Below are positions 39,175 to 62,485 of a stretch of 64,000 nucleotides of DNA, piece by piece. A program made the translations under genes and the position numbers. A model generated the notes under the pieces. The model was not told where the DNA came from, did no database searches, and worked only from the letters and a program-made list of their open reading frames with translations. Positions within the stretch are counted from its first letter, which is position 1, and every line of letters starts with the position of its first letter. Source of the DNA: a virus; IMG/VR virus record IMGVR_UViG_3300036792_000284, positions 60,280-124,279 of that record; one strand, given 5' to 3'.

Positions 39175-39238
39175 GTGCCTCTCCCAGACTTGGATGTCAC
39201 TTGACCCAAGTCTAGGGAGTTACTTGACAAGAGTCAAG

Positions 39239-39652
39239 TCAGAGAGTGCTATTTCCTGCCGGCTCGCGGTCCGCCGGGGCAGCGACCGCCTGCAGCAGCA
39301 GTACCTGGGAGGTTCCGACGGTCACCGGGTGCCCGGTCTGCGTCACGTGGTCGCCGGCCCGCGCCCCCTGGTCGCTCAGCGCCTCCGGCGTGGTGTCCTC
39401 CACGACCTCGGAGAACCCGCAGCCCTGGCACTCGGTGACCGAGGGCAGCCGCGTGAACGTCCGCCGCACGTTCTGCTTGCGGGCGCGCCAGGAGACCACC
39501 CAGTCCGGCAGGTGCTCCGGGCAGAACGCCTCGGAGCCGTCCCGGCGGTGGAACCAGCCTGCGTCTTTCGCCCGGATCGAGGCGAACTTGTCGCCCGGGT
39601 GCGTCACGGTGCAGCCGTTGGCGCTGCAGCGGACCGGGGGGACACGGCTCAT
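39239..39652 (-). CDS. Hypothetical Zn-binding protein
   Basis: CSANGC, FCPEH, CQGC. Confidence 0.6.
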   Translation of the reverse strand: MSRVPPVRCSANGCTVTHPGDKFASIRAKDAGWFHRRDGSEAFCPEHLPDWVVSWRARKQNVRRTFTRLPSVTECQGCGFSEVVEDTTPEALSDQGARAGDHVTQTGHPVTVGTSQVLLLQAVAAPADREPAGNSTL

Positions 39653-39969
39653 TTCGGCGGCTTCCGCCGCGGCACGTCGACCATGTGCCACTCCATGACC
39701 GCCGGCTTGCCTTTCACGTCCTCAACCCACCGGCCGTAGGAGTGCTCGGCGCAGTGGTACCACGGGACGCGGCGCTTGATGCCGTGCATCACCGCGATGA
39801 CGGCAGGCTGCCCGCAGGCGTGCTTCATGTCGCCGCCGCGCCAGCGGCACGGCTTGCCGTCCGGGGCCGGGGCCCAGTCGTGCGGGTCGGCGGGGACCGC
39901 CTCCCACCGGGTGCCCGGCTCAGGGTCGTGCGGCGGGGCGGGGCGGGCGAACGCGGTTCCGTTACTCAA
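39649..39969 (-). CDS. Hypothetical protein
   Basis: AGGAGG SD; CRW...HACG...YHCAEH. Confidence 0.6.
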   Translation of the reverse strand: MSNGTAFARPAPPHDPEPGTRWEAVPADPHDWAPAPDGKPCRWRGGDMKHACGQPAVIAVMHGIKRRVPWYHCAEHSYGRWVEDVKGKPAVMEWHMVDVPRRKPPK

Positions 39970-39995
39970 GTTTCCTCCTGTTGCTTGACTGAAGT

Positions 39996-40385
39996 CTAGC
40001 GAGGACGTTTCCCCTCGTCAACAGCGGCCTCCCGGCCGACCACCGCCAGCTTCAGCCGCTCCAGCGGCACGCCGCAGCGCGGGCAGCTCAGCTGCTCCCC
40101 GCCCGGCACGTCGTCCCACCACGCCGTCCCGCCGTGCTCACCGCACCGCTCGCAGTGCAGCAGCGTGAACACCTCGCGCCGGCCGGCCACGCGGCGGGCC
40201 TTCTCCGTCTCCGCGCACGCCTTCGCCGACATGGCGGTCAGGTGGTCGTGCACGCAGGACCAGACCGGCGCGATGTCCGGCTTCCAGCGCAGCGCCCCGC
40301 GGTAGGCTGCCGTGCCGCGCCTGATGTGCACGTAGCCGGCGCGCAGGTCCTTCGGGTCGCGGGCCGGGGGCGGTCCGCCGGTCAC
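39996..40385 (-). CDS. Zn-ribbon protein
   Basis: CERC...CPRC. Confidence 0.6.
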   Translation of the reverse strand: MTGGPPPARDPKDLRAGYVHIRRGTAAYRGALRWKPDIAPVWSCVHDHLTAMSAKACAETEKARRVAGRREVFTLLHCERCGEHGGTAWWDDVPGGEQLSCPRCGVPLERLKLAVVGREAAVDEGKRPR

Positions 40386-40699
40386 GACAGCCGGTCCGGG
40401 AACAAGGCGGACTCGATGGCAGCCCGGCGGCCGAGCACGGCCGGCCAGTTCGGCGCCTGGATGGAGCCGGACGTTCCCCGGGTGAGCATCTGGCCGTTCC
40501 TGGCCGCCTGCTGGTCGCCGCCGGAGTAGTCGATGCGGACGCAGGTCATCCCCCCGCCCGGCAGATGCACCCGGCGCCACTCGTACAGGCCCTGGCTGTC
40601 GCCGTAGGCGAGTTCGCCGGCGGGAGTCTCCGCGAACCACTTGGCGCCGCTGCGCTTGAACACCAGCGGCACCGAGCGGGACAGGATGTCGTCAGCCAC
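40382..40699 (-). CDS. Hypothetical protein
   Basis: GTG start; coupled. Confidence 0.55.
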   Translation of the reverse strand: MADDILSRSVPLVFKRSGAKWFAETPAGELAYGDSQGLYEWRRVHLPGGGMTCVRIDYSGGDQQAARNGQMLTRGTSGSIQAPNWPAVLGRRAAIESALFPDRLS

Positions 40700-40901
40700 G
40701 GGGCACCACGGCGGCCACTGCTGCCTGCAGCAGGTCGATAACGTGCTGCAGGGCGGCCTGGTCCGCGGAGTAGCCGGCGTACCCGGGCCTGCCGGCCAGC
40801 TCCGCCTTGACGCCGGCCAGGTAGCCGCAGACCCCCAGGGGGTGCAGCTCTTCTGGCCGCTTCCGCAGCGGCTCCCTGTCATACCCCGGCCCCATGCCCA
40901 T
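40692..40901 (-). CDS. Hypothetical protein
   Basis: Preceded by conserved leader and promoter. Confidence 0.6.
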   Translation of the reverse strand: MGMGPGYDREPLRKRPEELHPLGVCGYLAGVKAELAGRPGYAGYSADQAALQHVIDLLQAAVAAVVPRG

Positions 40902-40983
40902 GTGTGCCTGCCCTTCGCCTTGAAGACGAGACTGCCCCGCCAGATGAAAGCATAGCGGGGCAGTTTACTTGAGTCAAGTAACT

Positions 40984-41223
40984 CTAGGGGAAGGCGGGGG
41001 CACTGGCCCTGCAGTAGATGCCGTGTATCAGGGCGTCGGCGTCCCCGCCGAGGCGGGTCACCTCCGCCTTCAGCTCGGCGGCCACCGCCAGGGCGCCGGC
41101 GTACGTCAGGCCCGGGGCCTCGGCGGCCTGCTCCAGCACCTCGCCGTACATGCCGGCCTCGTAGGCGGTCAGGCCGGCCAGCGCGGTCAGCAGGGCCTCG
41201 GATGTCTTCAGGCGCGGAGCCAC
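40984..41223 (-). CDS. Hypothetical protein
   Basis: GGGAGG SD, GTG start. Confidence 0.55.
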   Translation of the reverse strand: MAPRLKTSEALLTALAGLTAYEAGMYGEVLEQAAEAPGLTYAGALAVAAELKAEVTRLGGDADALIHGIYCRASAPAFP

Positions 41224-41347
41224 GGGTACCTCCCGGTGTCGTCCGGATCGAGGGGACAGCCGGCCCGGCGGCCAGGGAGGCAAATCAAGCGACTCGATTT
41301 GTTAACCCTCAACCCTGGCCAAAGACAAGCTTTTATACGCCTAACGC

Positions 41348-41617
41348 TCATGATGTTGATCCGTCATCCATCAGCACGTCCCAGGAGCTGGCCCCCGCGG
41401 GCGCCGGCAGGCCTTCCCCGGCCAGCCGCAGTGCCGTCTCCGCGACCAGCCGCAGCGCCGCGGTGAGCGACGCAGAGCCCTGCTGGCCTGCGGAAAGGCG
41501 CATCTCCAGGCCCTCTCTCAGCAACTGGGACATGGGCACGCCCTCAGCCGCCGCGGCCTTGCGGAGACGCTCGTCGGTCTCCGGGTCGAGGTGCAGGAGG
41601 TACCCGCCTTTGCCCAT
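41348..41617 (-). CDS. Ribbon-helix-helix (CopG/Arc-like) DNA-binding protein
   Basis: YLLHLDPETDERLRKAAAAEGVPMSQLLREGLE. Confidence 0.75.
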   Translation of the reverse strand: MGKGGYLLHLDPETDERLRKAAAAEGVPMSQLLREGLEMRLSAGQQGSASLTAALRLVAETALRLAGEGLPAPAGASSWDVLMDDGSTS

Positions 41618-41675
41618 GGCACCAAGCTAGCAGGGGTGCTATATATATGCAAGCTAGCTATCACCCCTATATAAC

Positions 41676-42182
41676 TTATGACTCTGCGTTGCCCGGCCGC
41701 CACGACATGGCGTCAATCCACGGGTAAGTATCAACTTCCGCTTGAGACTCCGGCAAGGTACGCCCGAGGTGATCTGGAATCAGTCCCGGAAGATTCTGCC
41801 CAGATTCTTCACCGCAGAACAAGGCCAGTGTTTCTGGCGGCAGGTACCCGCTCACCTCGACGGTGCGCCCGGCCAGCCCCCCGACGAACTCCGCCGCGTC
41901 CTCGATGTCGCGGGCCTGTTCGTCGGCGAACCGGAAGGAGAACCCGCTTACCTCCACCCTGACAGGTCCGGAGCGCTGCCCGAACTGGGTCATGTGCAAG
42001 ACGGCCCTGGAGGCTGTAACCGGGACCGGGTCCTCAGGCGAGCTGCACACGCAGCCGAAGCGGATCTCCGGAACCATGGCATCAGGCGAGCCGCACGGGC
42101 ACCACACGGCGCCGACATGGCCCGGAGGGACAGTCATCCGGTTGCCGCAGGCGGGGCAGGCGTAGTCGGCGGTGGGGGCCAC
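41676..42182 (-). CDS. Hypothetical protein with N-terminal Zn ribbon
   Basis: CPACG...WCPCG. Confidence 0.55.
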   Translation of the reverse strand: MAPTADYACPACGNRMTVPPGHVGAVWCPCGSPDAMVPEIRFGCVCSSPEDPVPVTASRAVLHMTQFGQRSGPVRVEVSGFSFRFADEQARDIEDAAEFVGGLAGRTVEVSGYLPPETLALFCGEESGQNLPGLIPDHLGRTLPESQAEVDTYPWIDAMSWRPGNAES

Positions 42183-42211
42183 GGCTCAAGCCTAGACAGG
42201 CGGGCGGGCGA

Positions 42212-42247
42212 GGGCGGCGCCTTAATGAGCACCGAACGGCGCCGCCC
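42212..42247. terminator. Stem-loop
   Basis: Perfect 10-bp arms GGGCGGCGCC/GGCGCCGCCC. Confidence 0.55.
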
Positions 42248-42419
42248 TCGCTATATCCCGCGCGGTGGGCGCCGCCTGGTCGAAGGGCGGCACGCGGGGG
42301 AGCAGAAACCGAGGCTCCGTTTGCGGCGGCGTGCCTCCAGGCCCTGCGCGGCCCACGCTAGCAGGGCAGCTGCGCTGCGCGCAGGCGGAAAAGATTTATC
42401 AGTCGCGGGCGGACTACCA

Positions 42420-42513
42420 GCCGCGGCGGTCCGGTGGAACGGGACTCCGGATATATATGTCCCCGGCCGTTCGGCGGGACCCGGATATATATAAATTTGC
42501 CGCGGCGGTCCGG
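42420..42513. repeat. Nested direct repeats around ATATATAT boxes (origin or terminus candidate)
   Basis: GCCGCGGCGGTCCGG at 42420 and 42499; GGGAC(T)CCGGATATATAT at 42441 and 42476. Confidence 0.7.
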
Positions 42514-42643
42514 CACACACCTAAGCACCCGCGGAGGCGAGCCTCTGACCTACCCGGATGGGACCCGGACGACGCGGCCCCGCCGCGCGCGGGCCCGCCA
42601 GCATGCCGGCGGGGCGCCCCGGGCGAGGCGCCCCGCCCGCGGG

Positions 42644-42886
42644 CTAGGCCCTGGCCTCCCGCACTATGGCTTTGCACATCCACGGCATCCCGTGACCGTC
42701 CGCGTCCACATAGAGCAAGTCACACGCCCCGTAGCGCGCGCCCACGCTGGCCTCCCGCACTATGGCCAGGGCCTCACTGTCGTTAGGCGCCCCGGTAACC
42801 AGCGTTACCAGGTCATCCCCCGTCATGGCTTCACGCGCGCGCGAGTCACCCGCGCGCGCCGCTGCTAGCTTCTGCTGTGCTGTCAT
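42644..42886 (-). CDS. Leaderless hypothetical protein
   Basis: ATG 6 nt after -10 TACGAT. Confidence 0.6.
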   Translation of the reverse strand: MTAQQKLAAARAGDSRAREAMTGDDLVTLVTGAPNDSEALAIVREASVGARYGACDLLYVDADGHGMPWMCKAIVREARA

Positions 42887-42947
42887 AGGCCCATCGTAGG
42901 CGCGTGGCTTGACTCTGGTCAAGTGCCTACCCTACGGTGGGCCCATG
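42884..42947. promoter_or_regulatory. Symmetric bidirectional promoter
   Basis: One palindrome supplies both -35 boxes; TACGAT (minus) and TACGGT (plus), each 18 nt from -35 and 6 nt from an ATG. Confidence 0.8.
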
Positions 42948-43178
42948 ACTAAAGCACAAGCGCGCCGCATGGCTGCAGCAAACGCACGCCTGATGGGCCC
43001 TAGGGTGCCGGGTGGCACGTACCGCAGCGCGTGGAGCGACGAGACGTACACGGTAGAGGCCATGTGGTGCACCGTCGGCGACGCGTGGCCATGGGTACGC
43101 ATACGTACCGCAGCTGGCGAGGTACGCCAGCACTGTACGCCATGGGACGCGCGCGACATCGTGGTTAACCTCCCCTAG
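42945..43178 (+). CDS. Leaderless hypothetical protein (only convincing plus-strand gene)
   Basis: ATG 6 nt after -10 TACGGT; followed by a hairpin. Confidence 0.65.
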   Translation: MTKAQARRMAAANARLMGPRVPGGTYRSAWSDETYTVEAMWCTVGDAWPWVRIRTAAGEVRQHCTPWDARDIVVNLP

Positions 43179-43192
43179 CCGAGCAACGCCCA

Positions 43193-43224
43193 TAGGGCCC
43201 GCACCGATGTCGGTGCGGGCCCTA
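43193..43224. terminator. Perfect 15-bp inverted repeat
   Basis: TAGGGCCCGCACCGA-TG-TCGGTGCGGGCCCTA. Confidence 0.65.
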
Positions 43225-43230
43225 TTCATG

Positions 43231-43302
43231 CCTGGAGGCCTGGAGGCCTGGAGGCCTGGAGGCCTGGAGGCCTGGAGGCCTGGAGGCCTGGAGGCCTGGA
43301 GG
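43231..43302. repeat. Tandem repeat (CCTGGAGG)x9
   Basis: 72 nt counted directly; stray copies near 43337-43353 and 43879. Confidence 0.97.
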
Positions 43303-43309
43303 CATGGCT

Positions 43310-43339
43310 AGGGCCCGCTAGGACGTCCTAGCGGGCCCT
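43310..43339. repeat. Perfect 30-bp palindrome
   Basis: AGGGCCCGCTAGGACGTCCTAGCGGGCCCT. Confidence 0.9.
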
Positions 43340-43354
43340 GGAGGCGCCTGGAGG

Positions 43355-43762
43355 CTACGGAGCGATGCGCGCCACGCGGTAGCCGTAGTCAGTGAGCTTG
43401 ACCGTAAGCGCGTCGCCGACTACGCGCGCCGTCCGGCCGGAGTCTGCCTCGCTCACGATGCGCTGTACCTCGCCAGCGGTCCGGCCTAGGGCCCGCAGCA
43501 TGAGGGTTAGCGGTCCGTAGGCATACCACGTGTGGTGAACGTTGCTGGCGCCGGCGGTACCGCAGCGGTACGCGCTAACCCGCTTACCATCGATGTCTGC
43601 CTCATAGCAGACCTGCCATTCTTCAGCGTCATGCTGCAGCGTGGCGAGGTACGCCTCCACGCTAGTCGCCGGCATCGTGCGGACGTCGACATCGCGTGCT
43701 GTCTCGCCCGGTATCCATGACCGTACGGTTACCTCTGACTCTAGAACTAGGGTGCCGCTCAT
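43355..43762 (-). CDS. Hypothetical early protein
   Basis: Conserved leader and promoter. Confidence 0.65.
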   Translation of the reverse strand: MSGTLVLESEVTVRSWIPGETARDVDVRTMPATSVEAYLATLQHDAEEWQVCYEADIDGKRVSAYRCGTAGASNVHHTWYAYGPLTLMLRALGRTAGEVQRIVSEADSGRTARVVGDALTVKLTDYGYRVARIAP

Positions 43763-43898
43763 TGGGTGCCTGCTCTCCGTTGCTCGGAATGATGAAACCA
43801 GCATAGGCATATGGCTTGACTCTGGTCAAGACACGCCTATGCCCGGTAGGGGTTACCTACCGGGCGAGGCGCACGGGCCCTGGAGGCCTGGAGGGTGC

Positions 43899-44195
43899 CT
43901 ACATCACGTCAAGCGGGATGTGCCTCCACGCGTTCGCGCGCTCTGCCGCAGCCTCCCCGGGGAACGTGTCCCCTTCCGGTACCGCGTAGGCGTGCGCGTG
44001 GATGTCCGCCGCGGGAATGGTGCCCAGAGGGTTTACGACGTCCGCGGCGATGCGCGCCGCGTGCTCTTCCGACACGATGCCCTGCACACGGGAGTCTAGG
44101 TAAAACGTGGGCGTGCCGCGGGACCCCTCCCACGTGACGCCGTGACGGTCGGTTTCATGAGTGAGCACTCGCACGTGTACGGCGTAGAGGGTCAT
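43899..44195 (-). CDS. Hypothetical early protein
   Basis: ATGA overlap. Confidence 0.6.
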   Translation of the reverse strand: MTLYAVHVRVLTHETDRHGVTWEGSRGTPTFYLDSRVQGIVSEEHAARIAADVVNPLGTIPAADIHAHAYAVPEGDTFPGEAAAERANAWRHIPLDVM

Positions 44196-44380
44196 GACTG
44201 GTCATCCCCTGCAAGCAGGTAGGCGCCGGCAGGAACACCGAACGCGATGCGGAGGATCTGCGCGTGCGGCGCGAACATGTCCGCCAGACAGTAGGAGTCG
44301 CTCATTTCGTCAAGCGCTGCTGCTAGTACCTCGCTCACCCGCGCGCGGTCTGCGGGTGTGAATTCCTGCCTGTCTTCCAT
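44192..44380 (-). CDS. Hypothetical early protein
   Basis: Leader variant AAAGGCAGGTACG. Confidence 0.6.
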   Translation of the reverse strand: MEDRQEFTPADRARVSEVLAAALDEMSDSYCLADMFAPHAQILRIAFGVPAGAYLLAGDDQS

Positions 44381-44444
44381 CGTACCTGCCTTTGTTCGTC
44401 GGTAACCCCACCGTACGCCCATGGCTTGACTCTGGTCAAGCGTG

Positions 44445-46091: not shown

Positions 46092-46185
46092 TGGGTGCCT
46101 GCCTTTGCTCGGTTGCTGTTGCCTGCAGCGTACGCGTATGGCTTGACTCTGGTCAAGCGTGGCTAGCTGCCTGGCACACGGCAGC

Positions 46186-47006: not shown

Positions 47007-47072
47007 GGGAACCTCCTTAGCCGGTTGCCTACGGCCAGCATACGCATATGGCTTGACTCTGGTCAAGACACA

Positions 47073-47331: not shown

Positions 47332-47532
47332 TCACCTGCAGCTTTCGGCGTAGTACCGCTTGACCGTCCGAGGGTCGCGGAGGCAGGCACGGGCGATTTC
47401 AGCCCACGGCGCCCCGTTGTCTCTGGCCGCGCGGATAGCCGCAACTAGGCGCGGTTTCATCGCTGCGCGCATCCCATCGTGAGCGTAGACACGTCCGGCC
47501 GCGCGCAGCGTGCTCCACTCTTCATCGGTCAT
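47332..47532 (-). CDS. Small HTH protein
   Basis: LVAAIRAARDNGAPWAEIARACLRDPRTVKRYY. Confidence 0.65.
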   Translation of the reverse strand: MTDEEWSTLRAAGRVYAHDGMRAAMKPRLVAAIRAARDNGAPWAEIARACLRDPRTVKRYYAESCR

Positions 47533-47780: not shown

Positions 47781-47845
47781 AGGGTGCCTGCCCTTCTAGG
47801 TTGCTCACAGCGTACGCGTATGGCTTGACTCTGGTCAAGACATGA

Positions 47846-48078: not shown

Positions 48079-48167
48079 ACCCGCCAGCATAGGTGAGCGC
48101 TTGACTTGAGTCAACACAGCGAGGCACCTCGGGGGATACCTCCCGGGGCGCCTCGCTGCCTGGCAGG

Positions 48168-49238
48168 CTAGACCGTGACCAGCTTACGGTCTAGCACCCT
48201 GGCCAGGACGTCAAGCGCGTTCGCGTCCTCGCCCGCGGTCTTGCCGGTCACCATGTTGAGGAGGTTGCGCTCCATGCGACCCCCGCCGGCGCCGGCCGCG
48301 CCGGTAACCTTGCGCTGCCAGGTCCGGTACGTGTTGTCAAGCTGCAGCACGCCGAACGCGGTTCCCGCCCACGGCTTCACCTTGGGGTCGTGGTTCCACA
48401 TCGCCTCGAACGTGTCGCGGACCTTAACCGCGTTCGTGTACTTGATTCCGCCCGTGCTGCTCTTGGGGTCGCGCGGGGGAACCGGCGCCATCTCGTCAAG
48501 CCACGCCGTGAAGTCTTTCGACGTGACATCGATCGCCTGCAGGTCCGCGGCGGCGTGGGCGAAGTCGTCGCCGGCCTGGTACACCAGCCCTAGCGCGTTG
48601 CGCACCTCGGAGATACGCCCCGCCGAATTGCGCGAGTGCTTCACCTTGAGTTTTGTAAGCGCGCTGCCGAGTGCCGCAGACAGCGTGTTGTCGCAAACGA
48701 CACCCTCCACGCCAGTTGCGTACGTGCTCGCCAGCGAACCGTCGACGGAGGTAGCCGCGACGATGTACGGCGCGAATCCGTACCCGCCCACTTCCAGCCC
48801 GCTTCCCGCTAGCTTCGCTTGCAGGAATGCGACTCCGCGCTTACGGAGCAGGCCGACGGACGCGACGCCCAGTTCTCCGCGCGACGTGTCGAGAATGGCC
48901 GCGATCTGGTCCGCGGTCCACTTCTGGTACCCGTGCACCTGGTAGCCGCTCTTGAACACGCCGAGAATGTCACCCGTGTCAGGGGTGACGATGGCCTGTC
49001 GCTCCGGGTCCTCCGTCACCTGGCGGTTGCCGTCGGCATCCTCGAACTGCGCGAAGATTTTAGCCGAGACGAAAGGCACGTCCAGAATGCGGCGCACCTC
49101 CGCCTCCGGTACGGGCCCGTCAAAGTGTGACCCGTCGGTCATGTACTCGCCCGACGCCGCCCACCAGGCCGGCCCGCGCTCGTCGGTGTACCCGATGCGG
49201 ATATTTGCCTGTAGCCATTCGAGAGATTCGCGGCTCAT
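48168..49238 (-). CDS. DUF932 family phage/plasmid protein (TIGR03299-like)
   Basis: GDILGVFKSGYQVH, ATSVDGS......VVCDNTL..AL, KVKHSRNS, GTAFG. Confidence 0.85.
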   Translation of the reverse strand: MSRESLEWLQANIRIGYTDERGPAWWAASGEYMTDGSHFDGPVPEAEVRRILDVPFVSAKIFAQFEDADGNRQVTEDPERQAIVTPDTGDILGVFKSGYQVHGYQKWTADQIAAILDTSRGELGVASVGLLRKRGVAFLQAKLAGSGLEVGGYGFAPYIVAATSVDGSLASTYATGVEGVVCDNTLSAALGSALTKLKVKHSRNSAGRISEVRNALGLVYQAGDDFAHAAADLQAIDVTSKDFTAWLDEMAPVPPRDPKSSTGGIKYTNAVKVRDTFEAMWNHDPKVKPWAGTAFGVLQLDNTYRTWQRKVTGAAGAGGGRMERNLLNMVTGKTAGEDANALDVLARVLDRKLVTV

Positions 49239-49313
49239 TGGGTGCCTGCCCTTCCGTCCGCCCGGGGTGCCCCGGGCTCTTAACTACAGTTAAGCCTAGC
49301 TGAGCTGTATCTG

Positions 49314-50693: not shown

Positions 50694-50772
50694 GATGCCT
50701 CACCTGTATGTGTTGGGTTGATGGATAGCTAGCCAGGGCATCCCGGGCACGGGAGCGCGTCGCGCTGTGAAC

Positions 50773-51369
50773 TTACCCGGTTGCCTTGACTCTGGTCAAG
50801 CGCGAAACCTCCGCGCTTAGTGACATGTGGTTGTGAAACTCTGCCTGGCCGGGAGGCAGCAGGAGGTCACCCGCGCGCAGCAGCACGGCCATAGGCGCCC
50901 CGGTGGCGATGTAGAGCGCGGCGGCGTCGGTCGGCGCCCCGGCTAGCTGGTCTGTCAGCTCGTGCGCCTGGACGTCTAGCAGGTGCGCAGCGCAATACAG
51001 GCGCCCGCGGTGCGCGCTCTCGGCGTCGCGGTGGCAGCTGTCACAGGTCCCGATCGCGACGCGCAGCGCTTCAACCGGCATCGTCTTGCGCTTGCGGTAC
51101 TCGTCAAAGACCGTAGCCACGCGCGAGAGCCGACGGTTAGCCTCGCCGGCTGCTTTCTTGATGGCGACGTCACGCCGCAGCACTTCGGCATCGAACTTGC
51201 CGCGCCACATGACCAGCATCCCGTAGTCCGCCGACGCGTCGGCGATGTGCCGCTCGAACTCGCGCCGGCTCTCCGCGTTGCCGCGCTCCATCCACTGCCG
51301 CTCGCACCGTGCGAGGAACGCGGCCAGCTCGGCCCGCTCCGCGTCGTTGTCGAGTGAGTCTCTGCTCAC
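50773..51369 (-). CDS. Hypothetical protein with Zn finger
   Basis: CDSCH...YCAAH; promoter palindrome embedded in the last codons. Confidence 0.6.
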   Translation of the reverse strand: MSRDSLDNDAERAELAAFLARCERQWMERGNAESRREFERHIADASADYGMLVMWRGKFDAEVLRRDVAIKKAAGEANRRLSRVATVFDEYRKRKTMPVEALRVAIGTCDSCHRDAESAHRGRLYCAAHLLDVQAHELTDQLAGAPTDAAALYIATGAPMAVLLRAGDLLLPPGQAEFHNHMSLSAEVSRLTRVKATG

Positions 51370-51527
51370 TACTTCCACCCCTCCCGCTCCGCTTGCGCGC
51401 GGACGTCGGCCGGCGTGCGGAGATCGACCTTCGGCGCGTGGTCGAACATGGCCTCGAACTGCTCTTGTGAGTGCAGCATCCCTTCCGGGGTGTTGCTCAC
51501 CTGCCCGGTAACGGTCGCGGTGCTCAT
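51369..51527 (-). CDS. Hypothetical peptide
   Basis: Conserved leader and promoter. Confidence 0.6.
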   Translation of the reverse strand: MSTATVTGQVSNTPEGMLHSQEQFEAMFDHAPKVDLRTPADVRAQAEREGWK

Positions 51528-51590
51528 TGGGTGCCTGCCCTTCGGTTGTGCTTGACTCAAGACTAAGCGATGCCTTGACTTGAGTCAAGC

Positions 51591-52503: not shown

Positions 52504-52573
52504 GATCCGTGCCTGCCTTTCGTTGCCTGACTTGTGACCAGCCTAAGGCATGGCTTGACTTGAGTCAAGCAAA

Positions 52574-53596: not shown

Positions 53597-53722
53597 GGGG
53601 TGCCTGCCCTTCGCTCGGTTGCCTGCAGCGCCAGCCTAAGGCATGGCTTGACTCAAGTCAAGCATTCCACGCACAGCGGGTGAGCCGTCGGAACCGCGCC
53701 CGCTACGCGTGGAATGCCCGCC

Positions 53723-54321: not shown

Positions 54322-54357
54322 CGTGTGCCTGCCTTTGCTCGGTTGCCTGCAGCCAGC

Positions 54358-54630
54358 CTAGGGCATGGCTTGACTTGAGTCAAGAGATGGCGGGCTGCCG
54401 GCTCCCGGCCGCAGCAGGGCCAGCGCCTGCCGCTCGAACTCCCCGCAGGCCGCCGTGCCTGCTCCCAGCGTGCGCGCGTAGCGCACCAGCCCCGCCGCGG
54501 CCTCCTCCCGGGACACCACCCGCGCGCAGTCGTTTTCGACGTCATACACCACGCGCGGGCCGGGGCACCCGGCAGCGGCGAACACAGGGTCGTGACCTTC
54601 CCCGTAACGGTCGCAGCAGACGGGGGTCAT
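54358..54630 (-). CDS. Hypothetical protein
   Basis: ATGA overlap. Confidence 0.5.
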   Translation of the reverse strand: MTPVCCDRYGEGHDPVFAAAGCPGPRVVYDVENDCARVVSREEAAAGLVRYARTLGAGTAACGEFERQALALLRPGAGSPPSLDSSQAMP

Positions 54631-55142: not shown

Positions 55143-55221
55143 CAGGTGCCCGCCCTTCGGTTGTCTCGGTTGCCTGCTTGCAGGGTAGTGCATGGCTTGA
55201 CTTGAGTCAAGAAACGAAAGC

Positions 55222-55689: not shown

Positions 55690-55716
55690 AGGTGCCTGCC
55701 CTTCGGTTGACTGCTC

Positions 55717-56205: not shown

Positions 56206-56271
56206 GGGATGCCTGCCTTCCGGTTGTCTAAGCATCACCGTAATGCATGGCTTGACTTGAGTCAAGAAACA

Positions 56272-56306: not shown

Positions 56307-56327
56307 GACAGGGGTTGAGGTGCCGGG

Positions 56328-56411
56328 CTACTTGCTCGGCTTGGCGTGCTTCGGGTCGTAGTCGGGGTTGCCGGGCTTCTCTTCGCCCTCGTGGCTACCG
56401 CGTCCGTTCAT
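56328..56411 (-). CDS. 27-aa micropeptide in its own cassette
   Basis: MNGRGSHEGEEKPGNPDYDPKHAKPSK; own promoter, leader and terminator. Confidence 0.55.
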   Translation of the reverse strand: MNGRGSHEGEEKPGNPDYDPKHAKPSK

Positions 56412-56444
56412 TGGTGCCTGCCCTTCCGTTTGGTTGACTGCAGT

Positions 56445-56693
56445 CTAGTTGCTTGTCTTGACTGGTGTCAAGCACCAGGCGGTACGCATGTACCTGCAGA
56501 ACCGCCTCCGGTTGGCCCGCGTGCGCAGTTGCCACGCGATGACCCCGCCGATGACCAGGACTAGCGCCATCTCGTCTAGCGGGCCCGGAATGGCCAGGCA
56601 GGCGCCGAACACGACCGCCAGCCACTTGGGGAGACGGGCGAACCGCCACAGCGCGACCGCCAGGCGCCGCACGCGCCTAACCGCGGTGCTCAT
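56445..56693 (-). CDS. Small membrane protein (YkvA/DUF1232-like motif)
   Basis: LAIPGPLDEMALVLVIGGVI. Confidence 0.55.
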   Translation of the reverse strand: MSTAVRRVRRLAVALWRFARLPKWLAVVFGACLAIPGPLDEMALVLVIGGVIAWQLRTRANRRRFCRYMRTAWCLTPVKTSN

Positions 56694-57208: not shown

Positions 57209-57278
57209 TGGGTGCCTGCCCTTCGGTTGTGCCTGTGCGCCCAGCGTATGTGATGGCTTGACTTGAGTCAAGCACAAA

Positions 57279-57311: not shown

Positions 57312-57353
57312 CTGGCTTGCCGGCGGTCTACTCGTCGTCTGCGGTCCAGTCGG

Positions 57354-57590
57354 TCATGATGCCTCCAGCTCAATGCGGAACTTGTAGCCGGACTCGTGCA
57401 CCAGCTCGGTGCCGAGCGCAGCCGTGTGCAGCCGCCCGGCGAAGTCGTTGGCGTCCTTTTTCGTCGTGACGCCGTTGTCGGTCAGCACGTAGAACGCGGC
57501 GGTAGCCGCCTTGCGCGTCGTCGGGAACGGGCGCTGAGTCTTCTCCTGCCCTTGCGGAGTCACGCGGACTAGCTGATACGTGGATGCCAT
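57354..57590 (-). CDS. Hypothetical protein
   Basis: Conserved leader. Confidence 0.6.
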   Translation of the reverse strand: MASTYQLVRVTPQGQEKTQRPFPTTRKAATAAFYVLTDNGVTTKKDANDFAGRLHTAALGTELVHESGYKFRIELEAS

Positions 57591-57650
57591 GTGCCTGCCC
57601 TTCCTAATGAGCGAGGCGGCCAGCTGGCTTAGCTGGCCGCCTCTGTGCTG

Positions 57651-57830
57651 CTAGTAGCGCCCGGTCCGCACGTCGGTGCGCGCCTGGTGACGCTCGCGGC
57701 GCCGGGCGCGGCGCTTGATCTCGGCCCGCTCGCCGCGGTCCCACTTGAGTGCCTGCTTGCCCGGCCCGAACGCGTCGACCTCGGACCCGTTGCGCGGCTC
57801 GCGCCGCATCGGCTGAATGCTGCTGTGCAT
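57651..57830 (-). CDS. Arg-rich 59-aa protein
   Basis: MHSSIQPMRREP...EIKRRARRRERHQAR; leader and promoter. Confidence 0.6.
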   Translation of the reverse strand: MHSSIQPMRREPRNGSEVDAFGPGKQALKWDRGERAEIKRRARRRERHQARTDVRTGRY

Positions 57831-57893
57831 AGGTGCCTGCCCTGTGGAGTTGGGTTCCTACAAGGCCAAGCTTAGGTGATGTCTTGACTGGAG

Positions 57894-58307
57894 TCAAGTA
57901 CCAAGGCGCCTGACTCCGCGCGCCGTGTCGAACCGCCGGCCGCACGCATCTATGGCAAGGCAGAACGTGTCGCCCGAGCGGCCGGTCCGCGCGCACTCCT
58001 CGCACAGGTCCGCGTCGCACTGGGCGCACGTCAGGTGGACCGTCGGCCCGCCGCAGCCTGCGCACGGCGCCAGGACAGCCGGGCCGGGCCGCCGCACTAC
58101 GTCGGCCAGTTTGCGCCTGCCCTTGCGCAGTACGGCCTCGCGCTCCTCGAAGCGCATGGCCAGGTAGTCCTCTTCGCTCACCCCGGCCGCCTCGCGCAGC
58201 TCGCGCGCGTAGGCGGCGCGGGCAGCCACCGACCGCACCGCGCCCTCGTACATGCGCAGCGCCGCGTCAGCCCGCGTGCGCGCCAGGTCCGGGTCAGGGG
58301 TGCTCAT
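57894..58307 (-). CDS. Zn-finger protein
   Basis: CAGC, CAQC, LCEEC. Confidence 0.6.
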   Translation of the reverse strand: MSTPDPDLARTRADAALRMYEGAVRSVAARAAYARELREAAGVSEEDYLAMRFEEREAVLRKGRRKLADVVRRPGPAVLAPCAGCGGPTVHLTCAQCDADLCEECARTGRSGDTFCLAIDACGRRFDTARGVRRLGT

Positions 58308-58528
58308 GTCCCGAACTCCGGGTCGGTCCGCCGGAACATCTCGCGGGTCAGCGCGTCCTGCATACGCCTCAAGTCTGACAGCGCGCGCTCGTTGCTCTGC
58401 TCCCACGCCGCGCGCTGCTGCTGCACGGCCAGGTCTTGCCGGCGCCGGATCTCCGGGGTGCTCAGCGTCTTGAACAGCTCGGCTGCCTCGCGGTCGGTCT
58501 CGTCTGTCCAGTGTGCCTCGCCGCTCAC
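58304..58528 (-). CDS. Small coiled-coil protein
   Basis: Coupled overlaps. Confidence 0.55.
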   Translation of the reverse strand: MSGEAHWTDETDREAAELFKTLSTPEIRRRQDLAVQQQRAAWEQSNERALSDLRRMQDALTREMFRRTDPEFGT

Positions 58529-58749
58529 GGCTGGCCTCCGTCGATGAACGCAAGCCGCTCCGTGCCCGCCTCGGTCAGCGCCAGGCAGCCGGACCACTCC
58601 TCGTCGGTCTTCACCAGGCCGGCCTTCACCAGCCGGCCGAGCGCCGCCTTGCCCTTGCCGACGGAAACCGCCGTCTCCGGGCGCGGATGGGCGTTGTAGC
58701 CGACGTAGCGGAGCACCGCGTCGTCGCGCAGCTCGGCGAGGGTCATCAT
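58525..58749 (-). CDS. Winged-helix-like protein
   Basis: ALGRLVKAGLV...LALTEAG.ERL. Confidence 0.65.
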   Translation of the reverse strand: MMTLAELRDDAVLRYVGYNAHPRPETAVSVGKGKAALGRLVKAGLVKTDEEWSGCLALTEAGTERLAFIDGGQP

Positions 58750-58946
58750 GCCTCCCACGGGCGTGTCTTGCCCTGCAGCGCCAGCCACGCCGCGCGCATG
58801 AGCGGGGTCATGACGCGCCAGGACGGGCGCTTGCGCCCCTCGACCGCGGTCCGGATGACCTCGGTCACCAGGGCGCGCTCCTGGTCGTCTGCGATGCTGC
58901 CAGCGAGGCCCCGCGCCCACGTGAGCGCCTCAGCGGACGGCGTCAC
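58746..58946 (-). CDS. Hypothetical protein
   Basis: Coupled overlaps. Confidence 0.5.
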   Translation of the reverse strand: MTPSAEALTWARGLAGSIADDQERALVTEVIRTAVEGRKRPSWRVMTPLMRAAWLALQGKTRPWEA

Positions 58947-59272
58947 CGGCTTACCTTCGCCAGTTCGGCGCGCACCTGGTCAGCGACCTTGGCGGGAACG
59001 GGCTTGTCCGTCTCGATCCACATCAGGTCCATGGCCACGGCCGGGCTGCCGTTGATGAGAGTAGCCAGCTCCAGGTTGGTCAGCCCCAGGTGCTGCGCGC
59101 CCTCCCACATCAGCCGCGGGCTGACCGCGCCGAGCAGAAGCTGAGCATTACCCTCCAGGAAGCCGGCCATAGCCGCCGCGTCGTCGCAGTTGCGGATGTT
59201 GCCGTGCTCTCGCTGCAGCGCAGCCGCGTACGCGGTGCCCTGGTCTCTCTTGCTGATCTTCGCTTGCGCCAT
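58943..59272 (-). CDS. Hypothetical protein
   Basis: Conserved leader and promoter. Confidence 0.6.
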   Translation of the reverse strand: MAQAKISKRDQGTAYAAALQREHGNIRNCDDAAAMAGFLEGNAQLLLGAVSPRLMWEGAQHLGLTNLELATLINGSPAVAMDLMWIETDKPVPAKVADQVRAELAKVSR

Positions 59273-59313
59273 CGGGTGCCTGCCCTCGGGTCGGTTTCGC
59301 TTACAGGTGCAGC

Positions 59314-59601
59314 CTATGCGTCATCTTGACTTGAGTCAAGTAGTAACCTGCCCGCCTTCAGGCACGCCCTGCCCTGGCCGGTCAGCTTGTAGCTCGTCTG
59401 CTTGGGCAGGGACACGACGCGGACCAGGCCAAGCCTCTTCAGCATGCGGGCACAGATCACGGCACGCTGCCGGCTAACGCCCGCCTCCTGCGCTACGTCC
59501 AGCGGAGTAACCGTGTACTGGCGGTCGATCGCAGCCGGCACCTTGCGTTCTGTCTCAGTCAGCACGCCCCAGGTCGCCGCGCTGTCATCGAACCCGGTCA
59601 C
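59314..59601 (-). CDS. MarR-like winged-helix DNA-binding protein
   Basis: LTETERKV, TPLDVAQEAGVSRQ...LKRLGLV...YKLTGQG. Confidence 0.75.
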   Translation of the reverse strand: MTGFDDSAATWGVLTETERKVPAAIDRQYTVTPLDVAQEAGVSRQRAVICARMLKRLGLVRVVSLPKQTSYKLTGQGRACLKAGRLLLDSSQDDA

Positions 59602-59873
59602 GGCGCTGCCACCGTCGGCTGTGTCTTCGCCTGCTCAGTGGTCAGCCACTCGCCGCGGTGCCCGCTGTCGTCGCCGTGCCGGTCCATCCGCAGCCAGCGG
59701 TCGGAGACCAGGCCGTGCACGACCCACATCTCGAACTCCTCCAGTGTCATGCCGGTGAACTCAAGCAGCGGGCCTTTATAGGGCGGGAGACCGTTCGCGC
59801 CCACCTGCGCTCGCGCGTAGCTGTTGAGCATGCGGCGGATCTTCCGGTCTGCGTCGTTGTCGTACACCCACAT
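59598..59873 (-). CDS. Hypothetical protein
   Basis: Coupled overlaps. Confidence 0.55.
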   Translation of the reverse strand: MWVYDNDADRKIRRMLNSYARAQVGANGLPPYKGPLLEFTGMTLEEFEMWVVHGLVSDRWLRMDRHGDDSGHRGEWLTTEQAKTQPTVAAP

Positions 59874-60265
59874 CAGCGCTGCCTGTTTCCCTTCCGGGCG
59901 TACCTCGCCAGCATGTCCGCCGACCCGGCCACGTGCGCTCCGTCGGCGAGCATCGCCTCGATGTCGTGGTCGCCTGTGGCGAGGCCGGCCAGGTCGGTAC
60001 CGCGCAGCGCGTTGGTGCCGATGACCAGGTGCGGGCGGACGATGATCTCGCCCACGATGAAATGGTGAGTCCACCTCGGCTCGTACACGCCGCGGACATG
60101 GTGGCCGCTGTCGTAGGTGAGCGGGTTGTCCTGGCCGCGGGTCATGCTCGCGCCGACGAAACTCACCATCCCCGGCCCCTGGTCCTGCACGTAGAGCCAC
60201 GCGGGCACGTGCCGCGCGTCCGGCCCGTACATCACCCGGGTCATGTCGCCGTAAATCTCATCCAT
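59873..60265 (-). CDS. Hypothetical protein
   Basis: Leader and promoter. Confidence 0.6.
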   Translation of the reverse strand: MDEIYGDMTRVMYGPDARHVPAWLYVQDQGPGMVSFVGASMTRGQDNPLTYDSGHHVRGVYEPRWTHHFIVGEIIVRPHLVIGTNALRGTDLAGLATGDHDIEAMLADGAHVAGSADMLARYARKGNRQR

Positions 60266-60326
60266 GGGCCTGCCCTTCCTCGGTTACAGGCCAAGCGTAC
60301 CTGTTGGCTTGACTCGGGTCAAGCAC

Positions 60327-60590
60327 TCAGATCGTGTTGCCGCTGTTGACGCTCACCGCGATGGCGGCCACCTGGGCGCCGGCGTGGCCGGCCAGCTGCA
60401 GCATCACGCCGTAGAGCGACGACAGGCAGGGCTGGCAGATGCGCGGTAGCTTTGCCTGGCCGCCCGGGGTGACCACCGGGACGTGCAGCCCGGGCGATCC
60501 GTCGTCGCCGCACAGCGCGCATTTGGTGCCGGGGAACATCAGCACCTGCGTCCGCCGGTCAGGCGCGCTCACGTGGCCCAGCCCTTCCAC
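60327..60590 (-). CDS. Zn-finger protein (start may be near 60572)
   Basis: CALC...ICQPC. Confidence 0.55.
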   Translation of the reverse strand: MEGLGHVSAPDRRTQVLMFPGTKCALCGDDGSPGLHVPVVTPGGQAKLPRICQPCLSSLYGVMLQLAGHAGAQVAAIAVSVNSGNTI

Positions 60591-60880
60591 GGCGTGTCGA
60601 TGTTCAGCGCGCGGGCACCCCGCAGCAGGATGGCCGAGCGCTCCGGACTGAACGCCGGCAGGCTCAGGTAGGCGAGAAAATCCGTCCGGGCCGCCTTGAG
60701 CAGGTGCCAGAGCCCGGTCAGGTGCGCCGCGTCGCGCTCGTCCTGGTCGGACATCACCCAGTCGCGGGAGGTCTCCCCGCTGGCCTTGCGCAGCAACTGT
60801 GCGAGCATCACCCGGTCATCGGGCTGCGCGGTCCGCAGCTCTATCCACAGCGTGTCCGGCTCGGCCTCTACGTCACACAT
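60569..60880 (-). CDS. Hypothetical protein
   Basis: GAGGAG SD; CGTAGTAG motif upstream. Confidence 0.55.
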   Translation of the reverse strand: MCDVEAEPDTLWIELRTAQPDDRVMLAQLLRKASGETSRDWVMSDQDERDAAHLTGLWHLLKAARTDFLAYLSLPAFSPERSAILLRGARALNIDTPWKGWAT

Positions 60881-60946
60881 ACGTGCCTGGCTCCTCACAG
60901 AGTTGAACCGGGGACCACCGCAGCCCCCGGTTCTTCCTACTACGGA

Positions 60947-61528
60947 TCAATCCTGCACTTCGGGGACAACGTGGTAATAACCGCCCTCGAACAGCGCGAC
61001 CGCCTGCGCCACGCGCGCGTCGTCCAGGGCGCGGATGTGCGCGTCGATGTTGCTCACGGTCGGCCGCCGCAGCACCCGGCCCGCTGCCCCGTCGGTAACC
61101 TCCAGCACGATGCACTGCGAGGCGTCGACCACCACGGCCAGGTCTGGGGACAGGTCCTGGCGGAAGATGTCCGGCTCACGGTCGGCCGGCGCCGGGTCGG
61201 CCGCCTCCGGGCCCTCGCCGAGCGCATTGCGCAGGCAGGCGTAGAGCGAGGCCACCTCGCCGTCGCGCGCCGCCCGCGGAAACCGCTCGCGCAGCCGGTC
61301 CCCGATCTGTCGCAGCTGCAGCCGTGCCTCCTCCAGGTCTGAGCGGTGCTCCTCGTACTCGAAGACGCTCGCGAGGCGTGCCATGGCTACCTCCGCCGTG
61401 TCCGCGCTGTCGACCTCGTAGCCGTCCACGAACATCTCGTAGAGGCTGTCCGCGCGCTGCTCTACCGCGTACCGCGGGGCGGCGTCCAGTGTCCAGCGCC
61501 GCCCCTGCCGCGTCCAGTTGTAGGTCAC
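60947..61528 (-). CDS. Hypothetical protein
   Basis: GTGA overlap. Confidence 0.55.
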   Translation of the reverse strand: MTYNWTRQGRRWTLDAAPRYAVEQRADSLYEMFVDGYEVDSADTAEVAMARLASVFEYEEHRSDLEEARLQLRQIGDRLRERFPRAARDGEVASLYACLRNALGEGPEAADPAPADREPDIFRQDLSPDLAVVVDASQCIVLEVTDGAAGRVLRRPTVSNIDAHIRALDDARVAQAVALFEGGYYHVVPEVQD

Positions 61529-61767
61529 CGCGTGCCCCGCAGCTCCCGGGCCTTGGCCCGCAGCAGGTCGGCCAGGGCGTCGCAGTCGTCGGCGTCCAGG
61601 TAGGCGTGCTTGCTGGTGGTGACCGCGGTCGAGTCGACCGTGAGCTTGGCCAGGTCGCCGATCTCGGCCGAGCGGACCGCCACGCCGACCTCGTCTTCGG
61701 TAAGGATGTCGGCCACCTTGGCCAGGTCGCCGCCCCACTCGTCTCGCATTCCGGGTGTAACTCGCAT
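61525..61767 (-). CDS. Hypothetical protein
   Basis: Conserved leader and promoter. Confidence 0.6.
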   Translation of the reverse strand: MRVTPGMRDEWGGDLAKVADILTEDEVGVAVRSAEIGDLAKLTVDSTAVTTSKHAYLDADDCDALADLLRAKARELRGTR

Positions 61768-61842
61768 CGGGTGCCTGCCCTTCGCTCGGTTGCTTACAAG
61801 CCCAGTCTACACCCATAGCTTGACTTGAGTCAAGACATAGAA

Positions 61843-61877
61843 CGACCCCGGAGCCGGCGGTATTGGCTCCGGGGTCG
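61843..61877 (-). terminator. Stem-loop
   Basis: 13-bp arms CGACCCCGGAGCC/GGCTCCGGGGTCG. Confidence 0.7.
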
Positions 61878-61888
61878 CGTCCCAGGGG

Positions 61889-62389
61889 TCAGCCGCGCAG
61901 TGCGGCCGGCTCGGCAACCGGCTGGCTGGCGGGCAGGGTGACGTCGTAGCAGCGGTTCGTGACATCGAACTTCACCGTCACGTCGCCGTTGGCGATGCGC
62001 ACGGTTGCGGCTATGCCCTCCATGCCCTCCGCGGCCCTCGCCGCGCGCATCAGCGCGTCGGCCAGGCTGGCCGCCAGGTGCGCGGACGTCAGCAGGGTGA
62101 ACGCCCGCGCGTTCGTCAGCCGGTAGTAGGTCGTCGTCTCGGCCGCCGGCTCCGGGGTCCCGTGCCAGCCGCCCACGAGGGCCAGGCCCTTGCGCAGGTG
62201 CTTGCAGAACAGGTCGTCTACGGTGAGGCCGGGCGTGCCCGCCAGGAGCTGTGCCCGGCGGTAGCGGAAGTCCTTGCACGGGCAGTAGGGGAGCTGCACG
62301 TGGTAGACCTCGGCCGGGTCGGACTCGGAACAGACCACTACCGCGGTCGGGAGGACTGCCATGTCCTGGGGTGTCTTGCCTGCTGGCAT
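61889..62389 (-). CDS. SWIM zinc-finger protein
   Basis: YHV...YCPCKDF...FCKHL; leader and promoter. Confidence 0.75.
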   Translation of the reverse strand: MPAGKTPQDMAVLPTAVVVCSESDPAEVYHVQLPYCPCKDFRYRRAQLLAGTPGLTVDDLFCKHLRKGLALVGGWHGTPEPAAETTTYYRLTNARAFTLLTSAHLAASLADALMRAARAAEGMEGIAATVRIANGDVTVKFDVTNRCYDVTLPASQPVAEPAALRG

Positions 62390-62485
62390 AGGGTGCCTGC
62401 CCTTCGGTCGGGATTAACCTGCGTAGGCTTCCAGCATACCAGGTTGCTTGACTCGGGTCAAGACTGGCGGCTCTAGGGAAAGCAA

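Follow-up and report, generated by a model that had tools for sequence, protein, structure and literature searches.

The window analysed here, 64,000 nt in length, is the final 64 kb of a 124,279-bp virus contig from IMG/VR (record IMGVR_UViG_3300036792_000284, about 82% complete, about 69% G+C), and its early gene region is organized around one repeated palindrome, CTTGAC-N4-GTCAAG. The contig belongs to an uncultured high-GC phage of about 150 kb from soil, and nearly all of its genes lie on the minus strand. As a first-pass annotation of the sequence had reported, the window contains 21 perfect copies of the palindrome, from position 39223 to position 62462, against none in 100 dinucleotide shuffles. 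Degenerate copies, also described in that annotation, exist as well: when up to two mismatches are allowed, 33 matches are found (the 21 perfect sites and 12 more), whereas 1.57 are expected in total. In the whole contig, all 21 perfect sites are confined to the last 25 kb.

When the perfect sites are read on the minus strand, each of them (21 of 21) is followed by a TAnnnT hexamer located 17 or 18 nt after TTGACn, in agreement with the earlier description. Judged by the match in the -35 and -10 elements and in the spacer, each perfect site is a predicted promoter of the principal-sigma (sigma-A, HrdB-type) class. The upstream arm of the palindrome is the -35 element itself (TTGACy), the downstream arm falls within the spacer at about -27 to -21, and for most of the sites a distance of 42-57 nt separates the palindrome from the start codon that follows. 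Divergent promoters were considered and rejected, as a plus-strand TAnnnT stands at the correct distance in only 1 of the 21 palindromes. The conserved unit is a 7-2-7 dyad, CTTGACT-NN-AGTCAAG, that spans about -36 to -21 and is centred at about -28.5.

Two further features of the sites had been noticed in the first-pass annotation and are real. Four palindromes are coded within the last codons of the upstream gene, leaving no intergenic gap: those at 50785 (..LTRVKATG), 54369 (..LDSSQAMP), 56457 (..LTPVKTSN), and 59325 (..LLDSSQDDA), the LDSSQ ending being used twice. Degenerate copies of the form cTAGACT-N3-GTCAAG overlap the -10/+1 region at 39200, 39984, 51551, and 56433, where TAGACT or TAGTCT serves as the -10 element. 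These second copies span about -13 to +3; their spacing to the -35 copies at 39223, 51574, and 56457 is 23-24 bp, and the -35 element above 39984 has no palindrome.

Using the exact 16-mer as a query in IMG/VR, we identified five related contigs of 125-152 kb (G001-G005; the contig of this phage is G000) and one fragment (G011). The related contigs contain 13-30 perfect copies each, and the reversed-pattern control gives none; promoter-like sites with the palindrome number 14-36 per genome. Compared with phage isolates, the early-region DNA has matches, about 200 bp long, in two Gordonia phages and no others, and an 81-nt cassette from this region has no match among 50,697 GenBank phage records. 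The best match of the DNA polymerase is Microbacterium phage Magritte, at no more than 35% identity. By these sequence comparisons, the group appears to be a new phage family, a lineage without a cultured relative.

Since the 21 sites had been picked as palindromes, the conservation of the second arm was assessed on an independent set of promoters. We collected every TTGAC-N17-19-TAnnnT in the six genomes (G000-G005), leaving the second arm free, and obtained 180 promoters on the coding strands but 7 opposite to them. Of the 180 promoters, 137 have a perfect downstream arm, and over the whole set the arm shows per-position conservation of 84% (A), 96% (G), 94% (T), 83% (C), 95% (A), 94% (A), and 91% (G), whereas the spacer positions past the arm reach at most 59%, near the background composition. 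The arm is kept about as well as the C that precedes the -35 hexamer, the -35 and -10 elements themselves being fixed by the selection of sites. Orthologous promoters across the genomes retain both arms but differ in N4, spacer, and leader sequence.

The dyad is also found in other positions. The form CTAGACT-NN-AGTCAAG, with TAGACT as the -10 element, occurs at 16 places in the six genomes, and GTCAAG is kept in 15 of them. The TAGACT-type sites have several settings: (i) three promoters of the window that carry a second copy on the -35 element, (ii) a conserved promoter with a non-palindromic -35 element, and (iii) five sites in the virion module of the relatives, CTAGAC(T/C)-N3-GTCAAG (G001 68212, G002 145803, G003 72036, G004 41661, and G005 98865), that have no counterpart in this genome. 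At each virion-module site, 7-12 nt separate the palindrome from the start of a small gene, which is closely followed by a conserved gene for a 373-aa protein, and no TTGAC -35 element is present; a palindrome-binding protein may thus also act on a late gene. Because the palindrome recurs both shifted onto the -10 element and without a sigma-A promoter, it appears to be selected in its own right, apart from its -35 function, as the first-pass annotation had argued from the window alone.

In most of the region the palindrome is the core of a repeated minus-strand promoter cassette of about 70 bp with a constant order of elements: the upstream arm with the -35 element, the downstream arm, TAnnnT at 17-18 nt, a leader of about 20-30 nt, and a box, GGGCAGGCAC. 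This start box is mostly located 0-3 nt ahead of start codons, often as GAAGGGCAGGCACCCnATG (40913-62402 in the window, with examples at 53600-53609 and 52509-52518; also in G001-G005), and differs from the standard Shine-Dalgarno sequence. In this genome, 20 copies are on the coding strand and 1 is on the opposite strand; the corresponding counts for the six genomes together are 126 and 12. Some of the copies are not preceded by a promoter. A hairpin of -28 kcal/mol or lower is present within 48 nt upstream of 8 of the 21 sites, compared with 2.75% of background windows, and at these eight sites the hairpins are long and perfect, with a T-rich tail. Since terminators, promoters, leaders, and start boxes recur at the sites, the early region is a string of short transcription units, each composed of a terminator, a promoter, a leader, and one to few small genes.

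The individual early promoters are all on the minus strand. The palindrome CTTGACCCGAGTCAAG is used at 62433-62462 (TTGACC as the -35 element, 17 nt, TATGCT) and 60294-60323 (17 nt, TACGCT). The palindrome CTTGACTCAAGTCAAG is used at 61804-61834 (18 nt, TAGACT; a strong terminator hairpin immediately upstream) and, with a 17-nt spacing, at 59311-59340 (TAGGCT; within the LLDSSQDDA end of a winged-helix gene at 59314-59601), 57243-57272 (TACGCT; terminator hairpin upstream), 56237-56266 (TACGGT; terminator hairpin upstream), 55182-55211 (TACCCT), 54355-54384 (TAGGCT; within the LDSSQ end of the open reading frame (ORF) 54358-54585), and 52540-52569 (TAGGCT; a 17-bp terminator hairpin stops 5 nt upstream). 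Two promoters with a 17-nt spacing have palindromes of their own, CTTGACTCCAGTCAAG at 57869-57898 (TAAGCT) and CTTGACTTGAGTCAAG at 53633-53662 (TAGGCT). The palindrome CTTGACCAGAGTCAAG is found with an 18-nt spacing at 50770-50800 (TAAGTT; within the LTRVK end of gene 50773-51378) and 47809-47839 (TACGCT; terminator upstream). The latter promoter belongs to a subfamily with CAGA as N4, together with those at 47037-47067 (TATGCT; terminator upstream), 46127-46157 (TACGCT), 44410-44440 (TACGGT), 43800-43830 (TATGCT; terminator upstream), and 42893-42923 (TACGAT). Imperfect palindromes are present in the promoters at 48086-48115 (GTTGACTCAAGTCAAG, one base of the upstream arm changed; 17 nt, TATGCT) and 40949-40978 (CTTGACTCAAGTAAAC, downstream arm degenerate; 17 nt, TATGCT), and in an outlying promoter at 25691-25720 (CTTGACGGGAGTTAAG, variant downstream arm; 17 nt, TACTCT) that lies upstream of a gene for a 398-aa protein (24455-25651).

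Three promoters carry two copies of the predicted operator, one on the -35 element and one on the -10/+1 region: 56433-56472 (CTTGACACCAGTCAAG and CTAGACTGCAGTCAAC, 24 bp apart), 51551-51589 (CTTGACTCAAGTCAAG and TTAGTCTTGAGTCAAG, 23 bp apart), and 39200-39238 (CTTGACTCTTGTCAAG and CTAGACTTGGGTCAAG, 23 bp apart). In the promoter at 39984-40022, the -35 element, GTTGACG, is non-palindromic and the predicted operator, CTAGACTTCAGTCAAG, is present only on the -10/+1 region; three relatives share this layout. The promoter at 39200-39238 precedes a gene for a 56-aa basic protein and the gene for a 562-aa homologue of TraG/TrwB-type coupling proteins (37301-38989). A 27-codon ORF at 56328-56411 has a perfect start box, its own double-operator promoter (56433-56472), and its own terminator, and may encode a micro-protein or a leader peptide.

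The cassettes fall into local subfamilies. The N4 is CAGA at 42.9-50.8 kb, and TCAA predominates over other variants beginning at 51.6 kb; the spacer is CCATAYGCG with CAGA (42.9-47.8 kb) and CCATGCC with TCAA (from 51.6 kb). At 51.5-59.3 kb, much of the DNA similarity to the relatives consists of the promoter-leader cassette of about 65-75 nt, which matches many places per relative, and nearly all genes of this part have no homologues in the five relatives, a sign of rapid gene turnover. Most early genes are not common to all six phages. Because the subfamilies share N4 and spacer and the cassette matches many places per genome, the cassettes appear to have been copied or homogenised, by copy-and-paste or gene conversion. 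They probably help to shuffle genes, as proposed for the PeSL elements.

The simplest reading of the conservation and relocation of the palindrome is a dimeric binder that blocks RNA polymerase. We therefore predict that the palindrome is the operator of a dimeric repressor that shuts off the early regulon, likely as a lytic early-to-late switch; we consider this whole reading fairly probable, and the operator role within it appears well supported by the comparative data. It retains from the first-pass annotation the idea of one dimeric regulator silencing the early genes, and departs from it on the dormant state that had been taken to follow. The lytic switch is the most likely form of the regulation because the phage encodes its own sigma factor (gene 31158-31865, minus strand; phrog_351, 9.7e-10).

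From the motif and its geometry, extra conservation, and relocation, which are observed, we infer protein binding, repression, and timing. A putative dimeric protein on the 16-mer, centred at about -28.5, would compete with sigma region 4 and turn the promoter off, and, at the few promoters with two copies, another dimer covering -13 to +3 would prevent the open complex from forming, making repression tighter and probably cooperative. The proposed circuit would have three steps: (i) host RNA polymerase would fire all of the 25-35 cassettes at entry, (ii) a phage protein made in the early or middle phase would bind every cassette and close the regulon, and (iii) the phage sigma factor would take over the later genes. 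The cassette genes, small and fast-evolving, probably serve host take-over or counter-defence. An activator would be unnecessary in this circuit, because the promoters are already near consensus.

Two small helix-turn-helix (HTH)-like proteins, of 95 aa and 53 aa, are universal in the six genomes. The best candidate reader, although still a tentative one, is the 95-aa Cox/Xis/MerR-like winged-helix protein encoded at 26882-27169 (minus strand) and conserved in all relatives. It has invariant R36, Q37, and Q41 within a conserved RQRxFQM motif. Its structural model is a beta-alpha-alpha-beta-beta-alpha winged helix (predicted local distance difference test score (pLDDT) 68). The Foldseek neighbours of best probability are BldC, the RdfS excisionase, GlnR, CvkR, and Pukovnik Xis, with weak E-values, and in the ESM Atlas the protein is near HTH_17, Cox, and PrtN clusters. 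A variant of the dyad is found ahead of this gene in 18 of 18 loci (six genomes and 12 metagenome loci), as CTTGAC-N4-GTTAAG in 14 loci and as CTTAAC-N4-GTTAAG or CTTAAC-N4-GTTAAA in four, including that of the window. A weakened operator before a repressor's own gene is a classic design. In the window, the symmetric variant CTTAAC-N4-GTTAAG occurs twice on the minus strand, with one matching change in each arm and without a sigma-A -10 element: at 27224-27239, 54 nt ahead of the start of the 95-aa gene, and at 49279-49294, upstream of a DUF932 gene (48168-49238). At these two positions the relatives have CTTGAC-N4-GTTAAG and GTTAAC-N4-GTCAAG. Directly before the variant dyad, four relatives share a conserved GCGGAATAGA (GGAAT-like; G001 17466-17478 and equivalents), which may be a -35 element for a non-sigma-A factor.

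The second candidate reader is a small three-helix HTH-like protein encoded at 31858-32040 (minus strand). Its 53-aa conserved core (31858-32019; pLDDT 92) overlaps the start of the sigma gene, and it shows weak HTH likenesses and weak Foldseek E-values. The G011 fragment, only 53% complete, has five copies of the site and neither candidate gene.

Other regulators were considered and set aside as readers. Winged-helix or HTH genes are present inside the early cassettes at 59314-59601, 58525-58746, and 47332-47532 (the last with a weak Pfam HTH_38 match), and the first of them ends inside the operator of the next promoter. These early-arm genes are not the universal reader, because they are missing from most relatives while the site is invariant. 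No repressor gene of the kind that lies within its own operon was seen, as no HTH gene is conserved inside the cassettes of the six genomes. A TetR_N domain is not detectable in these genomes, the sole weak match being inside the sigma gene. A GntR/HutC regulator of 246 aa is encoded outside the window (G000 158-898; Pfam GntR 1.9e-8, UTRA 1.3e-3). Its gene is among the few on the opposite strand, where it is the only regulator, and diverges from genes for a MerR-like 87-aa protein (G001 108260-108523), a DUF2637 membrane protein, and a 694-aa protein (G001 107365-111439, L044); in G000 the contig end cuts this module. The intergenic region of the GntR gene has a conserved single-copy TGTAC-N8-GTACA and GGTAC repeats, resembling the TraR/KorA kil-kor sites of Streptomyces plasmids (PMC4447253). 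Because its own region carries these different sites and no CTTGAC dyad, the GntR/HutC protein was set aside as a reader of the palindrome, and we take it to be a local switch.

Several of these observations weigh against a dedicated phage repressor of the early promoters. The site ahead of the 95-aa gene always differs from the early-promoter site (TTAA for TCAA/TTGA in at least one arm), and so consistent a difference could point to a different reader. The operator and the candidate recognition helix are both invariant in the 6 genomes and 12 metagenome loci, which leaves no changes in the two to be correlated. Neither the 95-aa nor the 53-aa protein has a match in Pfam or PHROGs, where no candidate regulator reaches a curated family threshold; the HTH_3 and HTH_17 profiles give sub-threshold matches only, and a PDB profile search with both candidates returned nothing significant. 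More generally, Pfam and PHROGs searches with about 90 proteins of the window gave no match for nearly all small conserved proteins. Finally, the local subfamilies reveal copy-and-paste or gene conversion, so that part of the identity among sites reflects shared ancestry and not selection. However, cassette copying explains the identity of neutral positions within a subfamily and not the contrast between arm and flanks across subfamilies and genomes.

The gene content of the phage bears on its host and on its lifestyle. A full replication module is present. The plasmid relatives of the TraG-like protein that are listed by genus are all Actinobacteria (Streptomyces, Rhodococcus, Pseudonocardia, and Arthrobacter), at about 31% identity, and for this reason the host is probably an actinomycete. 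A second gene on the opposite strand encodes a DivIVA-domain protein (Pfam 2.6e-10; G000 contig 3720-4373, plus strand, L202); such a gene is unusual in a phage and fits a host with polar extension, e.g., a mycelial actinomycete. As to the genome ends, the 'direct terminal repeat' assigned to G001 in IMG/VR amounts to an exact overlap of 127 bp, and the opening bases of contigs G004 and G005 recur 145-180 bp before their ends; these ends look like the product of circular assembly and not like true long terminal repeats.

The dormant state suggested by the first-pass annotation has to be weighed against these data. Its observation that no integrase is seen can be extended: searches for tyrosine and serine integrases and ParB (PF00589, PF00239, and PF02195) found none in G000-G002, G004, and G005, whereas the control genomes are positive, and the four relatives in this search are 97-100% complete. 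When the exact 16-mer was compared with 185,579 species genomes, the at least 120 matches listed were single-copy only, as by chance, and included no multi-copy prophage-like contig. Because the phage has its own sigma factor and replisome, as fits a large lytic phage, and no integrase or ParB, a lytic early shut-off explains the data without lysogeny, and the implied dormancy is not upheld. One could still imagine an immunity or dormancy repressor that holds the early regulon silent in a non-integrated carrier, in a plasmid-like or pseudolysogenic state, and confers superinfection immunity. Dispersed operators on lytic promoters are reportedly found in the temperate phage P1 (C1 repressor), and they are typical of temperate phages (SPbeta MrpR, PMC10516654); the genomes assemble as circles, and the opposite-strand GntR/HutC regulator, just upstream of the early arm, has a ligand-binding UTRA domain and, as neighbours, a MerR-like gene and a DUF2637 gene of a kind found on actinomycete plasmids. 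Nevertheless, the GntR region looks local, with sites of its own and no CTTGAC palindrome, and together with the absence of integrase and ParB, and of multi-copy contigs among the genome-scan matches listed, this makes such a carrier state unlikely. A more elaborate version, in which the palindrome regulon, the GntR/UTRA sensor, and the plasmid-like genes would provide reversible signal-gated silencing of a silent episome in a mycelial actinomycete, woken by a host cue, seems to us improbable; if true, it would be phage dormancy without integrase or partition genes.

The remaining explanations concern what, if anything, reads the palindrome. A host transcription factor could read the site, the phage having copied a host operator so that early expression tracks a host signal; some phages carry arrays of LexA or CtrA sites. 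This would agree with the operator being invariant across all relatives, as if set by a conserved host protein, and with no phage regulator being proven. The common variant would share one of its halves with an arm of the reported HspR site (CTTGAGT-N7-ACTCAAG), but the spacing is N2 here versus N7 there, and we know of no actinobacterial operator that matches the full 7-2-7 site. The genome-scan matches listed are scattered singles with none in an obvious candidate host, although that scan was not a regulon search, and a conserved phage winged-helix gene is tied to the site variant in all 18 loci; a host reader thus appears quite unlikely. It is also conceivable, if improbable, that the downstream arm has no reader and was spread with the cassette by copy-and-paste, serving at most as shared homology for shuffling. 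The similarity at 51.5-59.3 kb being largely the cassette itself among genes without homologues, the N4 and spacer shared within subfamilies, and the strong terminator hairpins before 8 of the 21 sites are what such a recombination signal would leave. Yet the arm is 83-96% conserved against near-background flanks in 180 copies from six genomes, and there are palindromes re-formed around TAGACT as well as palindromes outside any cassette; moreover, shuffling is compatible with an operator function and would be an added role rather than a replacement. The dyad might also be a positive element on which early firing depends, contacted by an activator or by an RNA-polymerase-associated factor that comes with the virion or belongs to the host; this would account for the site before the virion-module gene in five relatives, where no TTGAC -35 element is present and where a dual repressor/activator like phi29 p4 (PMC3100819) could act. 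At the early promoters, however, the -35 and -10 elements are already near consensus with optimal spacing, and a dimer centred at -28.5 overlaps the sigma region 4 contacts, the position of a repressor, which leaves this idea very improbable. Least of all do we expect a nucleic-acid structure, either an RNA hairpin for processing or stability or a DNA cruciform. A 6-bp stem with a 4-nt loop is possible (-5.1 kcal/mol), and the symmetric variant found twice preserves the pairing, but the palindrome lies upstream of its own start site, at eight sites just past a terminator, and would be mostly untranscribed. In addition, the arms are invariant in sequence and not covarying, one base pair is lost in the conserved CTAGAC/GTCAAG variant, a stable cruciform would require a longer stem, and an Rfam search of 39-64 kb gave no family match.

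A repressor operator repeated at many early promoters has precedents in several phages. In SPbeta, one short site (SPBRE) is likewise repeated at many promoters of the lytic programme, which a single protein, MrpR, silences (PMC10516654). SPbeta differs in being temperate and in having a known reader, a recombinase-fold protein. The C1 repressor of the temperate phage P1 is said to bind many scattered operators, which are asymmetric. Compared with P1 and SPbeta, the site described here forms a perfect dyad, with the -35 element itself as its upstream arm, and no lysogeny genes were found. In the Aca systems, a small HTH protein turns off strong inverted-repeat early promoters after an initial burst (PMC9410906, PMC6765145), and anti-defence genes of archaeal viruses share an early regulatory motif (PMC11065993). 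Both parallels apply here, with inverted repeats on strong early promoters and a shared motif that marks small fast-evolving early genes, but Aca acts on the one operon that encodes it, whereas here the site is common to 25-35 promoters per genome and the candidate reader is in the replication module.

The first-pass annotation had named mycobacteriophage stoperators and the cluster K ESAS as analogues; the functional likeness stands, but stoperators are asymmetric and lie in transcription units, and the likeness to cluster K fits the start box better than the palindrome. Cluster A stoperators (L5 gp71) are 13-14 bp long, asymmetric, and oriented with transcription, and they block elongation in temperate phages (PMC13313380, PMC3029335). 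In both systems one repressor site, here a predicted one, is repeated tens of times in the genome of an actinobacteriophage; stoperators, however, are located within or between genes, and the symmetric 16-mer described here is located in promoters. In cluster K, start codons are immediately preceded by a conserved box, the SAS, and the ESAS is an imperfect inverted repeat at a variable distance upstream (PMC3203893). The start box GGGCAGGCAC adjoins start codons in the same way, but the sequences are unrelated, and the upstream repeat is here a sigma-A promoter at a fixed distance, whereas the ESAS is not a -35 element. Actinobacteriophages of cluster O have more than 30 invariant 17-bp palindromes (7-3-7), the function of which is unexplained (PMC4351075). 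The cluster O repeats are unrelated in sequence and, unlike those described here, are not the -35 element of sigma-A promoters. The Streptomyces phage phiC31, temperate and with an integrase, reportedly carries a 17-bp inverted repeat about 18 times in its early region, where the c repressor binds it; its early promoters are said not to be sigma-A-like and the repeats not to be a -35 element. The repeated inverted repeats of the early region are thus shared with phiC31, whereas a repeat arm serving as the -35 element and the lack of a detected integrase are not. In the PeSL of T4-type phages, a terminator hairpin and an early promoter reportedly flank variable small genes and may promote their shuffling. 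The genes between the cassettes are similarly for the most part not shared with relatives, but the PeSL promoter has no dyad operator, and a strong hairpin is present here at only 8 of the 21 sites.

The principle of the regulon is not new: P1, SPbeta, L5, phiC31, and the Aca systems are known examples of the strategy, and the phages described here bring in one more lineage. Particular to this family are the operator half that is the consensus -35 element itself, the tie to a cassette of terminator, leader, and start box, and the lack of recognisable lysogeny genes. If the proposed circuit holds, it could be used in high-GC Gram-positive bacteria as a portable switch that turns strong sigma-A promoters tightly on and off. 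For the phages themselves, the motif maps the host-polymerase-dependent early transcription units across a family of uncultured actinobacterial phages of about 150 kb, and it marks about 60 small fast-turnover genes per window as the likely set for host take-over or counter-defence.

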